NCBI GenBank assembly: GCA_964203045.1
Contig: CAXNKU010000010.1
Coordinates: 4,490-68,489, forward strand
From: Gaiellales bacterium
GTDB lineage: Bacteria > Actinomycetota > Thermoleophilia > Gaiellales > F1-60-MAGs149
Length of the DNA stretch: 64,000 bases
Direction of reading: 5' to 3'
The translations under genes and the position numbers were made by a program. How positions within the stretch are numbered: the stretch's first letter is position 1; each line of letters opens with the position of its first letter. Under the pieces are notes generated by a model, which was not told the origin of the DNA, searched no databases, and was given only the letters and a program-made list of their open reading frames with translations. Positions 1-9,431 of the stretch are shown here, piece by piece.

Positions 1-165
1 ACATGACAAACCGGGGTTTGTGGTGTCCCCCCAGAAAGCTGCGCCGAGCAGATTAGGGATGCCGATGTAGGGGGACACCACAAACCCCGGTTTGTCATGT
101 CCCCCCAGCAGATGCCGCTACTCCGCCTGAGGACACCACATCCGCGCGGTTGTCATGTCCTCCCC
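1..165. repeat. Family A palindromic repeat cluster (REP/REPIN-like): inverted doublet 1-31/70-100 plus a third copy 129-165
   Basis: 1-31 is the exact reverse complement of 70-100 with a 38 nt spacer. Each unit is itself a hairpin GGACAyvACA-N10-TGTbrTGTCC. Further copies at 10811-10930 and 48780-48890. Confidence 0.85.
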
Positions 166-232: not shown

Positions 233-934
233 CTACTCGGCGGCGAGCAGTTCGCTCTCGGTGAGATAGTCGCGCAGAAGGTGGGTTGCTGTGATGCCCC
301 GAACAATTGCCACCATGTCGTTGAGGTTGAGTCGATTGACGGTGTCGCGGGGTCGGGCGCGCTGGTCGATTGCTGCGGCCGAGACGGCTGTCACCTCCCC
401 ACAACACGCGCGCGCATCTCCGTCAGCAACGGCTGGAAACTGCGCATCGGATTGTTTTTGGCGACTGGTGAGGCGGACGACGAGAGCGGTTTTGTGCGCA
501 GCGTTCCACTCGTCGAACGAGACGACGACGTAGCGTTTTCGCTCCGTGGTCGCAGCAGCGTTGATGTAATAGATGTCGCCCCAGCGTGGGTAGTCGACGC
601 GGCCGGCCGGTGGTCGAGCGAGCTTGGGGGGAGTGTTGAGAAGTCGTCGAGCTTGCACCAGTTCCGCAAGGCCCCGTTCGATGCTGTGAAGCAGCGTGTC
701 CGTGGCAACGGCGACGATTTCTTGGGCGGCTCGTTGAGGTACGACGACGATGCGGGTCGGGTCGAATGCTTGTTGGTCGTCCCAGGGGTCGATGGTGGCG
801 GTGGGGGAGGCCGTGGCGCGTGGCACGGCCGGCACCACTCCAACTCCATGCATGGCGAGGTTCCAAGAGGTCTTGGTCAGAACGAGCGCGCGGCCGAGCC
901 CGTCGACCTGCACGATGGTGCCGCGTTGAAGCAC
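233..934 (-). CDS. Tandem two-domain PemK/MazF-family toxin (putative mRNA interferase)
   Basis: Two MazF-like starts: MLQRGTIVQV...RALVLTKTSWN...VGVVP and PRWGDIYY...KRYVVVSFDEWN...ALVVRLTS. Each ends in a helix (IERGLAELV / IVRGITATH). Confidence 0.7.
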   Translation of the reverse strand: MLQRGTIVQVDGLGRALVLTKTSWNLAMHGVGVVPAVPRATASPTATIDPWDDQQAFDPTRIVVVPQRAAQEIVAVATDTLLHSIERGLAELVQARRLLNTPPKLARPPAGRVDYPRWGDIYYINAAATTERKRYVVVSFDEWNAAHKTALVVRLTSRQKQSDAQFPAVADGDARACCGEVTAVSAAAIDQRARPRDTVNRLNLNDMVAIVRGITATHLLRDYLTESELLAAE

Positions 935-940
935 GCGCGC

Positions 941-1195
941 CTACTGCGCGTCGGCGACTGCGAGCGTAAAGAGCTCGTCGATCGATTCGGCGTGCTCGGG
1001 GTCGGCGGCGTAGTCGGCGTAGAGCGCGCAGCGACGCGCCTCCTCAACCCGAGCGCGGCGAAGCAACATGCCCTCGATCAGCAGTTCCGTCAGCGCGCGG
1101 CGTAGAGAGAGTGCATCCGAGACACCGAACCGCTCTGGGTGTGCGAGCAGTTCGGCCTTGAGTTCGCTATCGACATCAACGGTGGTGGGAGCCAT
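941..1195 (-). CDS. Putative antitoxin (RHH/MazE-like)
   Basis: 84 aa, directly upstream of the toxin on the same strand. N-terminal TTVDVDSELK strand-helix and an acidic C-terminus. Confidence 0.6.
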   Translation of the reverse strand: MAPTTVDVDSELKAELLAHPERFGVSDALSLRRALTELLIEGMLLRRARVEEARRCALYADYAADPEHAESIDELFTLAVADAQ

Positions 1196-1201
1196 GCGCC
1201 A

Positions 1202-1247
1202 AGACTACCACTATTGGTTCAGATAGTGGTGCAGAAATTGGTTCAGA
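1202..1247 (-). promoter_or_regulatory. Leaderless -10 and putative autoregulatory operator of the TA operon
   Basis: TAGTCT (1207-1202) lies 6 nt before the ATG. Inverted repeat ACCACTAT-N8-ATAGTGGT (1207-1230). Direct repeat ATTGGTTCAGA at 1213 and 1237. Confidence 0.55.
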
Positions 1248-1286
1248 ATAGATGCATCAACCAAAACCGCTGCGAGGCCCGACGAC

Positions 1287-2296
1287 TCAGACAGCGTCGC
1301 GTACGAGCGGCGTGGTGGAGCAGTGGATACCGCCACCGTTGAGGTGCACCTTGTCGAAGGGAAGGATCTCCCACGTCACACCGTGAGCCTCGAGTGCGGC
1401 AAGCGTGCGGTCCGATGCTCCTTCAGGGAATCAGCAGTTCGCCCGGTGCGACAGCGAGGCCATTGACGATCCAGCCGTCATCCAGCGGCGTGATCTCGAC
1501 GGTGTGGATGCCGAGTTCCTTAAGGGTCTGCAAAAACGTGTAGGGCAGTCCCATCGGATTGACCAGCGCGAGGTCCTTATCGATCATCAGGAAGCTGCGC
1601 GTCGATGTGGATGTCGTAGCCCGTCAGCTCGACGACGTGGAGCGTGACGCCCTGGCTGGCCAGCACCTCGCCCACCTGCCGCGCGCCCTCGGCGTTGACG
1701 CGCACGCCAATGCCGATCGCGCAGTTGGTCTCGTTGAGCCACGCGAACGAGCCACCCTCCATCACGCCCGAGCCCGAGATGGTGCGCAGGATTGGCACGC
1801 CGAGCTTGGCGAGCGTCTGCGTCGTCACCAGCTCTTCGCCGCGGCGAATGCGCGTGCCCATCCGGTTGACGATCGCACCGCCCTTGACCATCTGGACGGG
1901 GTCGCGTGTGTAGACGGCCTTGAGGTGCCGGTCGCCGACGCCCTCTTGGTAAATCACCTCGACACCACGGCGCTCGAGTGCCGCGACGAGTCCGTCGTGT
2001 TGGGCCTGCATGACCGGGATGTTCGGCGGGTCTTCGCTTTGGAAGTACCAGTGCTCGGCGAGGTCGCCGTACGAGCCAATCGCGTCGATGCGCTTGCTGG
2101 AATCGACGATGTTCAGCTCAACACCGGGCCGGTGCATGAGGATCGAACGGATCTTGCCAACATCGTTGTTGACGCCCCAGGTGCGGCCCCAGGTCGCAGT
2201 CTGCTCGGCCGCGTCCTCGAAGGTGGGCTCGCCGCCAATGGCGAACATCTTGACGGTCTCGTTGTAGACCCACATCGGGTCGAGTGGCTCGCTCAT
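1287..2296 (-). CDS. Amidinotransferase / arginine deiminase / DDAH-family protein (two apparent frameshifts near 1600 and 1425)
   Basis: Motifs YTRD, EGGS and IHID. The shifted frames continue to ...KVHLNGGGIHCSTTPLVRDAV* with the catalytic Cys, stop at 1287. Confidence 0.8.
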
Positions 2297-5544: not shown

Positions 5545-5912
5545 GTAATGTTTTCCTTGTCGTCGCGCATAGCTCGAATGGTCGCGATTTCGACAGCGCG
5601 ACGAAACCCCCGCGGGTTAGATTGCGCCTCCGGTGCGAGGGCGAGCAGATAGAGGCCTTGGCTGTCGCGCCGATAGAGCACGCGGTAGAGGCTGCGTCCG
5701 CGCCGTGGCCGCAACTCGCGCAAGCCGATTACCGCCTTTGTGCGGATTGCGCTTGACCATGGGTGGCCGAGCTGGTCAAACTCGATTGCGAGGATTTCAA
5801 ACGCGTGGCGGATTGCTACTTCCTCGCGCGGGTGGCTGCACGCCAGACGTGTCAACTCGTCGACCAGAGCAGCGTGGAGGCGGAGCTGGCGATCCGGGAC
5901 ATTGTGGGTCAC
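5541..5912 (-). CDS. RelE/HigB-like (Gp49-type) toxin
   Basis: LGHPWS...GLRELRPRRGRSLYRVLY motif, toxin-first order. Start inferred at GTG 5912. Confidence 0.7.
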   Translation of the reverse strand: MTHNVPDRQLRLHAALVDELTRLACSHPREEVAIRHAFEILAIEFDQLGHPWSSAIRTKAVIGLRELRPRRGRSLYRVLYRRDSQGLYLLALAPEAQSNPRGFRRAVEIATIRAMRDDKENIT

Positions 5913-6106
5913 GCAGGCACCTTCATTGATCCGAGTGATCGCTGCTGGCACGCTGACTCGCGACAGGCGCGTGGTATCGGCCCAAGGTACGCGCGTCACG
6001 CAACGACTCCGCTTCGAGTGTGTCGAACGACTCCCCGCTGCGCGCACGGCCACGACGACCGGCTCAGGCGTGTAGCATCGACTCACGAACCGGTGGGGGA
6101 TATGCG

Positions 6107-6835
6107 ATGACGTTTGTTGAGGAATGCAAAGCGGCGGCAGGACCAGTCTGGGAGCGGTGGATGCACCATCCGTGGACAGAGGAATTGTTCGCTGGCACGC
6201 TGTCGGATGAGCAGTTTCGTTATTGGTTGATTCAGGACCTGCCGTACCTCGGCCAGCACATCACCACGCCGATGTATCCGAAGGTCCCACCGACGAGTCC
6301 CTTCATTGGCCTCTGCCGTGAGTATGCAGTGCGTGCACAGACAACACGCGTCGAGCTAGAGACGCTGGGCGACGTCGGCGATTTTGCAAAGACGCGCTGG
6401 GCGGCGCGACCGATGCGTGAGGGTGCGATCAACTTCTGGATCCGTACGGCCCACGAGGGCAGCTTCGGCGACATGTGCGCGGCGCTCTACGTCTGTTACT
6501 CGTTTGCCGATACGTTCGGTGGTCGCCTCAAGCGCGAGCAGCCGACGGGGCTACCGGCGCTGCAACAGGCCTGGGTCGAGCAATGGATTGATCCATATTT
6601 CGAGCGCCTTTTTGAATGCATCCGTGATGGCCTCAACGAGGCGGGCGAACATGCGACTGAGTTTCAGCGCGACCAAATGCGTTGGCTCTTCCTCCGTGGC
6701 ACGCAGTGGCAGATCGGTACCTTCGATGTGTCGATGACCATGTCTGACCCGTGGCCGGGCGAGGGCGAGGAGTGCGGCGTGATGGCCGATGCTCCGTGGC
6801 TCAGGCGCCAGGTCATCGCACACGCCGATGAGTAG
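6107..6835 (+). CDS. tenA: TenA/thiaminase II family protein
   Basis: WERWMHHPW...GTLSDEQFRYWLIQD helical TenA signature and a Cys in ALYVCYS. Confidence 0.75.
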   Translation: MTFVEECKAAAGPVWERWMHHPWTEELFAGTLSDEQFRYWLIQDLPYLGQHITTPMYPKVPPTSPFIGLCREYAVRAQTTRVELETLGDVGDFAKTRWAARPMREGAINFWIRTAHEGSFGDMCAALYVCYSFADTFGGRLKREQPTGLPALQQAWVEQWIDPYFERLFECIRDGLNEAGEHATEFQRDQMRWLFLRGTQWQIGTFDVSMTMSDPWPGEGEECGVMADAPWLRRQVIAHADE

Positions 6836-6901
6836 TTGAGCGTGACGGCACACTTCTGTGGCGTTCAACATCTGCAACGTCCACTGCGATAGCATCCCGC
6901 C

Positions 6902-7876
6902 ATGGACGCATTGATTCTTGGTGGGGGAGGCATGCTCGGCCGCAAGCTGGCCGAGTCGTACGCGGCTGATCAGGAGGCGACCCTCAGTCGCCTTTCGCTC
7001 GTTGACGCGTTTATTGAGCCAGCCCCGCCCGCGGGTGCTGGCTTCGCTGTCGATTGCAGCGTGGCGGACATCACCGACCCGGCCGTTACTCAGCGTCTCG
7101 TCGCCGAACGGCCCGACGTGATCTTCCATCTCGCAGCAATTGTCTCGGGCGAGGCCGAGCTCGATTTCGAGAAGGGCTACTCGATCAATCTCGATGGCAC
7201 GCGACTCTTGTTCGAAGCGATCCGTGGAGAGGGGGACGATTACTGTCCTCGCGTCGTCTTTACCTCGTCGATCGCTGCCTTTGGCGCGCCCTTTCCCGAG
7301 ATCATTGACGACGAGTTTATTCTGCAGCCACTGACGAGCTATGGCGCGCAGAAGGTGATGGGCGAGATGATGCTCAACGACTACTCGCGGCGAGGACTCC
7401 TCGACGGTGTTGGTCTGCGGCTCCCTTCGATCTGCGTGCGGCCAGGTGCGGCGAACAAGGCGGCCTCGGGACTGTTTTCGAACATCATCCGCGAGCCGCT
7501 GAGTGGTCGTGACGTCGTGCTGCCCGCCGAGCGGAGCACGCGTCACTGGTTCGCCTCGCCACGCTCGGCGATCCGCTTCCTTCGTCACGCCGCGACCATA
7601 GACACGCAGCGACTTGGGGCGCGGCGCTGTCTCAACATGCCCGGCCTGTCGGCCACGATCGCCGAGGAAATTGAGGCCCTGCGTCGCATCGCCGGCGACG
7701 AGGTCGTGCAGCGCATCCACGACGAACCCGATGAGTTGATCATGCGAATCGTGGCAGGGTGGCCCAGCAACTTCACAGCCGCGCGCGCGCGTGAGCTCGG
7801 CTTCTCTGCCGAGACCTCGTTCGAGGAGATCATCAACGTCTTTATCGAAGACGAGCTCGGGGGACAACTACCGTGA
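6902..7876 (+). CDS. denD: NAD-dependent epimerase/dehydrogenase, D-erythronate dehydrogenase-like
   Basis: [28 protein letters not shown] and [16 protein letters not shown]. Confidence 0.8.
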
Positions 7877-8619
7877 CGCGCGTTGCGATCGTGACGGGTG
7901 CCGGTCGAGGCCTCGGACGGGTCGTTGCGCTCGCGCTCGTCGCGGATGGCTGGACGACGATCGTGACGGGACGTGACCAGGCGATGCTGGATGCCGTCGT
8001 CGCCGAAGCCGGCCCGCTCGCCGACGCGGTCGTCTGCGATGTGACACGTGCTGACGATGTACGCCGCCTCTTCGACACCGCTGTCGAGCGGCATGGCCGC
8101 GTCGACCTCGTCTTCAACAATGCCGGTGTCGCAGCGCGGGGCGTGCCGATCGACGAGCTTGACGTGTCGGAGTGGCAGCGGGTGGTCGAGACCAATCTGA
8201 CGGGCACCTTCCTCAGCATCCAGCAGGCCTTCCGGGTGATGAAGGCGCAGGTGCCGCAGGGTGGGCGCATCATCAACAACGGTTCGATCTCGGCCACGAC
8301 GCCACGACCAAACTCGTCGCCCTACACCTCGACGAAGCACGGTGTGACTGGACTGACGAAGTCGGCCTCGCTCGATGGGCGAGCCTTCAATATCGCCTGT
8401 GGCCAGATCGACATTGGCAATGCAGCAACAGACCTAACGGCGCCCATGCGCTCGGGCGATGGTGTACCGCAGGCCAATGGGGAGCGCCTCGTCGAGCCGA
8501 CGATCGATCCGCAACACGTGGCCGACGCCGTGCTCTACATGGCCAATCTGCCGCTCGCTGCCAATGTGCAGACGATGACGGTGATGGCCACGACGATGCC
8601 CTTCGTCGGTCGAGGCTAG
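7873..8619 (+). CDS. SDR family oxidoreductase
   Basis: [17 protein letters not shown]. Confidence 0.9.
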
Positions 8620-9431
8620 TCGCTCGGACTGACAAACCGCACAGTCACTTCGCCGAGCGGGTCGTTGATGATCGTGACGGTCGAGCCTGCCTCAACCCAG
8701 TTTGTCGCGACGAGGCTGCCGAGCGTGACGACCTCACCCGCGCGCAGCAGTGAGCCGCGAGCATTGAGGCTATTGGCCAGCCAAGCCAGCGCCTCGAGTG
8801 GGTGGCCGAGAATGTCGCTGCCGCGACCAGAGCCCACCTCGCTGCCATCGATCAGCATCGTCGCTGTCGTCTGATCGAGGTCGTTCGGATCGAAACTGGC
8901 CTGCGCCTCGCCGAGGATGAGTCCGGCTCCGAAGAAGTCGTCGGCAATCAGCGTGGCGGCATCGAGCTGCCCGTAGTCGACGTAGCGGTTCTCCACGAGC
9001 TCGATCGTGGCGAGACACTCACTGACCATGGGCGCGAGCTCGCTGCGCACGTACGGCGTGCCGTTGGGATGGGGAGGAAGATCCACGCCAAGCCGGACCG
9101 CGACCTCGCACTCGACGCCAAACTGCGTCGTGCCGCGCGTCGTAACTGTCGCGGGGCTCTGGTGAATCTCGCGCTCGAGCACGCCGCCGGCGCTTGGGTT
9201 GTGGATATTGAGATACGCCTGCATGACGGGAGTTGTGCAGCCAATCTTGTGGCCCGCATACCCGCCCTCGCCGCGCGCGCTGAGCAGCGTGTGCAGTGCA
9301 GCCTGGATGCGATAGGCGCTTGCCTCATCGGGAGGACAGAGCGACGCCGGAAGGCTCGCAAAGCGGCCTCGTGCGAGGCGCGCGTCGGCTAAGACGTGCG
9401 CTGCCTCTTCGATCTTGGGCTCGGTCATCAT
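8616..9431 (-). CDS. 2-keto-4-pentenoate hydratase / FAH family protein
   Basis: [31 protein letters not shown]. Confidence 0.85.

Follow-up and report, generated by a model that had tools for sequence, protein, structure and literature searches.

A conserved two-gene module pairs a single-chain tandem MazF-like protein with a predicted antitoxin of an unannotated family

Toxins of the MazF/PemK family typically consist of a single domain of about 110 amino acids and act as symmetric homodimers with two equivalent sites. Every surface of a homodimeric MazF must serve both the catalytic subunit and its partner. In type II MazEF systems such as B. subtilis MazEF and M. tuberculosis MazEF-mt1 and MazEF-mt9, whose antitoxins are of the RHH type, the antitoxin gene lies 5' of the toxin gene and the C-terminal helices of the antitoxin lie across the groove between two toxin subunits. 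Mutagenesis has marked an Arg and a Thr as the critical catalytic residues of K. pneumoniae and B. cereus MazF, and in M. tuberculosis MazF4 (Rv1495, MazF-mt7; PDB 5XE2/5XE3), a homodimer of single domains of about 105 amino acids, Lys19 stands in place of the catalytic Arg (excerpts of PMC8086154 and PMC7354611). In solved MazEF complexes, the antitoxin displaces the first loop and fills an inter-subunit pocket that also binds downstream RNA, according to an excerpt of PMC8086154.

Here we describe a locus in a Gaiellales bacterium (assembly of 1.86 Mb, 77% complete) at which two unequal MazF-like halves, unlike the equal subunits of MazF4, are encoded in one chain. The window, meaning the whole 64,000-nucleotide stretch that was analysed, carries the following features. 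We think it likely that they constitute a two-gene MazEF-like module whose toxin is a single-site, RNA-cutting pseudo-dimer in one chain, predicted to be blocked by the 84-residue protein encoded upstream.

233..934, minus strand: tandem MazF toxin gene, 233 amino acids in a single reading frame, GTG start, 0 internal stops
644..934, minus strand: N-terminal MazF-fold half (residues 1-97), with G14 and V37 in place of the catalytic K/R and T; R4-G5 and the helix-1 motif W24-N25-x-x-M28 are retained
593..643, minus strand: Pro-rich linker (residues 98-114), ordered, from the AlphaFold model and the family alignment
245..592, minus strand: C-terminal MazF half, MazF4-like (residues 115-230), with predicted catalytic K133 (codon 536-538) and T156 (codon 467-469)
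941..1195, minus strand: predicted antitoxin gene, 84 amino acids, founder of an unannotated family; N-terminal part RHH/CopG-like (a lead only); toxin binding predicted for residues 41-83
1202..1210, minus strand: possible extended -10 element TGG-TAGTCT, 6 nt 5' of the ATG, read by eye
1215..1245, no strand assigned: predicted operator, three TGNNNCA heptads at 12-bp spacing (1215-1221, 1227-1233 and 1239-1245), a family-conserved array
1253-1259 and 1195-1201, no strand assigned: additional TGNNNCA heptads, from sequence
1207..1230, no strand assigned: 8-bp inverted repeat ACCACTAT / ATAGTGGT (1207-1214 / 1223-1230), overlapping the heptad array, from sequence

The toxin start sits 6 nt beyond the end of the 84-residue open reading frame, with both genes on the minus strand. 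An initial annotation, made from the sequence alone, had read the toxin as a single 233-residue ORF, and indeed no stop or frameshift separates its halves. The same unbroken frame recurs in other assemblies at 92-97% protein identity (P0003, P0004, L001 and L022), and it is therefore no assembly artefact; this rules out two genes merged by error or by a frameshift. The closest locus belongs to a Thermoleophilia MAG (Actinomycetota) and is 92-93% identical in DNA across both genes and their flanks. Between the halves, which span residues ~1-97 and ~115-230, the linker is tightly kept in length, with 21-25 residues from L93 to P116 in 57 of 59 aligned family members. Two single-domain PemK matches are encoded in the same genome besides the tandem toxin. 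Two lake metatranscriptome runs yielded only short contigs on parts of the toxin and antitoxin genes, possibly from library DNA, and none that spanned the toxin-antitoxin junction with 31 letters on each side.

Modelling and profile comparisons both point to a repeated MazF fold. The AlphaFold model of the toxin reached a pLDDT of 95.5 and a whole-chain pTM of 0.92, linker included. Residues 1-97 of the model aligned with MazF chains at Z 11-12 and an rmsd of about 2 Å (best Z 12.0, rmsd 1.8, 95 residues aligned), and residues 115-230 aligned with the S. aureus toxin chain 7ewi at Z 9.6 (rmsd 2.9, 101 aligned). Profiles of the two halves matched each other by hhalign with 98% probability (E 2.6e-13). 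Positions 3-100 of the family profile found M. tuberculosis MazF4 as the best match among PDB sequences (E 4.8e-11), together with many other MazFs. The two MazF-like modules and Pro-rich linker of the initial annotation were thus recovered, and both halves are predicted PemK folds. The annotation had also anticipated two PF02452 matches; we found one, on the C-half (residues 119-214, 28 bits against a cut-off of 23.1), and the N-half of the window protein alone gave no match to this model. When N-halves from across the family were isolated, 9 of 14 matched PF02452 at E<=1 (best 6.4e-5). A phmmer search of PDB sequences with the N-half plus linker returned 0 matches, and among the NCBIfam MazF models none was reached by the toxin, with nothing near any cut-off.

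The halves differ sharply at their active sites. In joint alignments, K133 occupies the Arg/Lys position, aligned with the Lys of MazF4, and T156 the Thr position. The C-half also shares a VRLT-type strand 3 with MazF4, and its chemistry is probably ordinary MazF chemistry. At the corresponding positions the window N-half has G14 and V37. The greater degeneracy first noticed in this one N-half proved to be a property of the whole family and not drift in a single genome: the K/R plus T/S pair is present in 54 of 59 C-halves versus 2 of 59 N-halves, or in 58 versus 3 under a lenient count that allows a slip of one residue. C-half catalytic residues are near-invariant although members share only about 36% identity over this half. 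Across N-halves no polar residue is conserved at the active-site positions, and R4, G5, W24, N25 and P44 are kept. Both halves are under purifying selection and the N-half is not decaying, with dN/dS of 0.08-0.13 for the N-half, 0.07-0.15 for the C-half and 0.02 for the antitoxin (three pairs among the window, L001 and L022); three further pairs of near-identical loci gave values from 0 to 2.2, with too few changes to inform. Together with the fold, the profile match and the predicted complex described below, these counts support the proposal of a fused pseudo-dimer with diverged halves.

Two variants stand apart. In an ERY-motif subgroup (P0064, P0074, L053 and L054), Glu replaces the catalytic Lys, the next Arg is retained and a QWRTRW-type loop is present; Glu occurs at the catalytic Lys position in 3 of 59 aligned members. 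Judging from these residues, the subgroup possibly has shifted catalysis or is inactive. Separately, L015 (genome G306) carries at about 1260-1800 on the plus strand a stand-alone MazF-fold gene that lacks both catalytic residues and lies 3' of an antitoxin-like gene, possibly representing a non-canonical MazF class.

The small upstream gene is a constant companion of the toxin. Scanning metagenome contigs gave 31 loci, one of them a false match (L052), which we dropped because only 18 residues of an unrelated protein matched. A homologous gene of 82-107 amino acids lies directly 5' of the toxin in 22 of 22 metagenome loci with sufficient upstream DNA, and in L001; among the other 8 of the 30 true loci, one holds the 3' part of the gene and seven are cut too close. 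A profile built from the upstream genes found the partner 5' of the toxin in 11 of 11 later whole-genome loci, nine at E<1e-3 with default filters and two with filters off, one of the 11 being a near-copy of L001. Loss of the antitoxin gene was never seen among loci with enough upstream DNA, and the two genes form a conserved operon. In L062-L065 the stop codon of the antitoxin gene and the start codon of the toxin gene share nucleotides (TGATG or GTGA), which suggests translational coupling.

Gene order in this operon matches that of type II MazEF, and the partner itself differs from its described counterparts. Its family gave no significant match to Pfam, NCBIfam or PDB sequences, setting the system apart from that of MazF4. 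Unlike the RHH-type MazEF antitoxins, it carries an extra conserved segment (P20, G24 and S30) and belongs to no library family. The model of the protein has an extended N-terminus followed by two short and two long helices. Its neighbour in the ESM Atlas is an RHH_1/CopG cluster (score 0.93) in which RHH_1 is found on 36% of members, and its Foldseek rows all had E>3, headed by a chain of the MazEF-mt1 complex (E 3.2). We take the RHH/CopG-like character of its N-terminus as a lead only.

Structure prediction of the two proteins together suggests how they meet. The toxin-antitoxin prediction scored ipSAE 0.87, 0.84 and 0.87 versus 0.00 in all three controls, and the mark used is one that 116 of 157 complexes of known structure pass, as do 2 of 215 mismatched pairs; because MazE-MazF complexes have already been solved, this success may partly reflect likeness to them. 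Runs shared at least 86% of their contacts, and partner pLDDT was at least 83. Antitoxin residues 41-83 are predicted to contact both toxin halves. Residues 75 and 79 would touch two strands, 63-66 in the N-half and 182-184 in the C-half, that are equivalent by hhalign and whose counterparts pair across the MazF dimer. This bridging fits halves arranged as the subunits are in a MazF dimer, an intramolecular packing predicted from the pTM and the contact list. In the same models, Tyr59 and Ala63 contact helix 1 of the N-half (W24, A27 and M28), Tyr62 contacts F166 and C177, and the interface takes in K133, R154 and T156. The antitoxin is thus predicted to span the two halves and to cover the active site of the C-half. 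Conserved linkage and predicted binding both argue that the upstream gene is the cognate antitoxin, as had been proposed.

From these predictions we can outline a mechanism. The toxin halves would pack like two MazF subunits, with the C-half supplying the catalytic Lys133 and Thr156. The N-half, its catalytic residues lost, would take the place of the partner subunit and complete the groove that binds RNA and antitoxin. The C-terminal helices of the antitoxin would occupy this groove, as in type II MazEF, and cover the active site. The N-terminal part of the antitoxin probably forms a dimer, and the 12-bp heptad array is the likely site at which it represses the operon. Were the antitoxin lost, the toxin could attack single-stranded RNA and growth would stop; here we infer RNase activity, toxicity and autorepression from MazEF biology. 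Homodimeric MazEF toxins have two equivalent sites, whereas in the tandem toxin one site would be live and the other dead.

The promoters of the family share a distinctive periodicity. An operator-like inverted repeat had been reported at this locus; the 8-bp repeat exists, but it is short and is only one of several arrangements arising from a 12-bp heptad array that is conserved in the family. The palindrome of L001 differs from that of the window and is built from two TGNNNCA heptads. A 12-bp-spaced heptad pair occurred in 11 of 17 promoters versus 3 of 4344 background windows, with the motif chosen after those promoters had been viewed. Eight further promoters served as a held-out set (the 11 later loci minus the near-copy of L001 and two whose antitoxin gene had not yet been located; some are kin). 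Without reference to any motif, 7 of these 8 showed lag-12 periodicity (17 or more matches in 30), compared with 8.9% of 2250 background windows. Two of the 8 carried the strict heptad pair (background 2 of 2250), and 6 of 8 the pair with one mismatch (background 51 of 2250). Short pseudo-palindromes in a spaced array are the kind of site to which RHH dimers could bind cooperatively, and the repeats at the promoter are candidate binding sites. A scan for sigma-70 consensus promoters and terminators found none; the extended -10 read at 1202..1210, if used, would give a possible leaderless transcript.

The distribution of tandem toxins is patchy. A phmmer search against 1.84 billion representatives at 50% identity gave 90 matches, 56 of them 220-248 amino acids long and so retaining the fusion, which the initial annotation had suggested searching for. 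The other 34 are by appearance mostly fragments or short start calls, and one (P0092) is a true single domain. Our alignment of 59 members comprised the window protein, 55 of the 56 full-length matches (a 97% copy was left out) and three proteins from other assemblies. A search for split or short forms (30-120 amino acids) with the profile of this alignment gave one match among 319 candidates, a fragment, in a word-indexed search that was weak and missed ordinary MazFs too. Full-length matches were present in 1 of 401 genomes sampled from the phylum (the window's own), 3 of 401 from the class and 12 of 401 from the order; 107 other genomes of the phylum sample had half-length MazF matches only. 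The phylum count takes in two unpublished genomes (G001 and G120), on which no other result rests. Within the genus, 7 of 26 other genomes carry a tandem toxin, of clearly different subtypes. A 61-member ESM Atlas cluster of 223 amino acids, auto-named PemK-containing, may be the same family. Source annotations label the tandem proteins ordinary MazF toxins or hypothetical proteins, and the architecture has been hidden by these names.

How the two halves came together can be read in two ways. In our tree, C-halves form one clade (SH-aLRT 96) and N-halves another. C-halves stand beside MazF4-like single genes, actinobacterial relatives among them, and the L015 single-domain gene is placed among the N-halves, both in a weak tree (SH-aLRT 88). 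A tree constraining N- and C-halves into one clade was not rejected (p-AU 0.58; the test used 110 columns and 27 of the 59 members, leaving out a duplicate single-domain row). These data are therefore compatible both with an internal duplication and with a fusion between two different mazF genes.

The surroundings of the module bear on whether its main job is phage defence by abortive infection, the antiphage role raised at the outset. Papers setting MazEF against phage are among the references of PMC10440598, BREX genes lie near L028 and a phage portal gene near L037, and the patchy distribution described above would suit such a role. Against this, 0 of 11 proteins matched a defence-system model in PADLOC-DB 2.0, and searches of viral contigs, phage records and plasmid records gave no match to the toxin (phage and plasmid records were searched with a single protein). 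The neighbours in 21 loci (71 ORFs assigned with Pfam, picked from 127 heuristic calls after excluding module genes, antisense shadows and most duplicates) are mostly housekeeping genes that vary from locus to locus. No third gene is conserved beside the module across these loci, and one locus is flanked by another TA pair. The pattern is that of a rare, mobile chromosomal TA cassette, unlike a defence-island system. We consider a primary role in phage defence improbable. At L028, PglZ and BrxL (BREX) lie at 5770-8675 on the plus strand, just 3' of the tandem-MazF operon, the only defence context in the 21 loci.

Other readings concern what the N-half, or the toxin as a whole, actually does. 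A regulatory or sensing N-half, with a protein or ligand docking at its dead site or at the linker to turn the C-half RNase on or off or to provide a second target, would account for purifying selection as strong as on the C-half and for the N-half's own retained motifs; topoisomerase I interplay has been reported for MazF4/Rv1495, the closest solved relative (parts of PMC3001090 and PMC9760754). W24, M28 and strand 63-66, however, lie in the predicted shared antitoxin groove, where the conserved N-half residues have the plain role of completing the one working groove and call for no new ligand, and a conserved third gene is missing; we judge this reading unlikely. Missing Arg and Thr are no proof of an inert N-half, since stand-alone MazF-fold genes that lack the catalytic pair exist beside antitoxin-like genes. 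The N-half could then be a toxin of the MazF/CcdB fold that is non-canonical and uses other chemistry, with a MazF4-like RNase fused to it. The placement of L015 would fit this, as would Rv0299, a very divergent MazF homologue described as marginally toxic as a GST fusion in an excerpt of PMC5175181. With no conserved polar residue at the N-half active-site positions, and a single clade of both halves compatible with the tree test, we find two toxins in one chain very hard to credit. Equally far-fetched to us is a toxin that is harmless or nearly so, the pair persisting as a selfish cassette under its own regulation or as a regulator that binds RNA. Its activity is an extrapolation and the Glu subgroup exists, yet the catalytic residues are near-invariant in strongly diverged C-halves and the antitoxin gene has never been seen lost. 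Our preferred reading therefore remains a one-site RNase whose N-half serves as the partner subunit.

A natural tandem MazF has apparently gone undescribed: searches of open PubMed Central and bioRxiv full texts, subscription journals being outside this scope, returned no such description. Matches to "double mazF" were papers on double mutants, plus a near-identically titled preprint of one, rather than on tandem proteins. Searching the main texts of three surveys by term (PMC13107127, PMC10440598 and PMC2701414) likewise did not bring up the architecture; their supplements could list members. The part of the initial annotation that supposed an undescribed TA architecture thus stands within the open literature, and its antiphage part lacks support. 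By its architecture the protein does not fit the description of a typical MazF/PemK toxin, and we regard the locus as a real, conserved and apparently undescribed MazEF variant, distinguished by an asymmetric toxin in one chain, antitoxins from a family without annotation and an operator of characteristic form. Park, Yamaguchi and Inouye reportedly engineered a MazF-MazE fragment fusion in 2012, which is like the present protein in holding MazF within a single chain and unlike it in being artificial and in joining toxin with antitoxin, not two toxin domains.

Since the roles of catalytic and partner subunit are here split between different sequences, the residues required for catalysis can be told directly from those required of the partner. 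Mutants in a single half would allow tests of site coupling and of antitoxin stoichiometry. The upstream proteins add a predicted antitoxin family that lacks annotation, and their operator has a distinctive 12-bp spacing. MazF enzymes are wanted as RNA restriction enzymes for mRNA analysis, and 186 homologues have been screened (excerpt of PMC13107127); a scaffold in one chain, each half of which could be altered without touching the other, would be well suited to this. More tentatively, joining the subunits may have freed MazF from two-fold symmetry so that the N-half gained a new job, either extended RNA recognition, yielding a monomeric, long-motif RNA restriction enzyme with no counterpart among homodimeric MazFs, or a dead-site sensor that switches the RNase on through a protein or ligand such as a phage product. 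We hold this to be a speculative possibility; if true, the family would represent a single-chain RNase under natural regulation, accompanied by an antitoxin family and an operator family that are both new.

The window also holds several features adjoining the module. A tRNA-Thr(GGT) gene lies at 2401-2473 on the plus strand, about 1.2 kb from the module, and no integrase was seen nearby. An arginine deiminase/DDAH-like amidinotransferase gene at 1289-2296 on the minus strand is split by an apparent frameshift near 1580-1620 and is continuous in L001 and L023. Between this gene and the antitoxin, L001 (1100-1552) and L023 (2019-2471) carry an SMR family transporter gene; window positions 1197-1289 are without it, and the promoter stretch is unalignable to L001 and L023 despite flanking genes that are 92-93% identical. 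Just 3' of the toxin, window positions 1-165 and the DNA running past the left window end contain a REP-like 37-bp palindromic repeat in direct and inverted copies. It has about 88 genome-wide matches at up to 6 mismatches, densest on contig C1, and its copy number at the toxin site varies among the close relatives L001 and L022.
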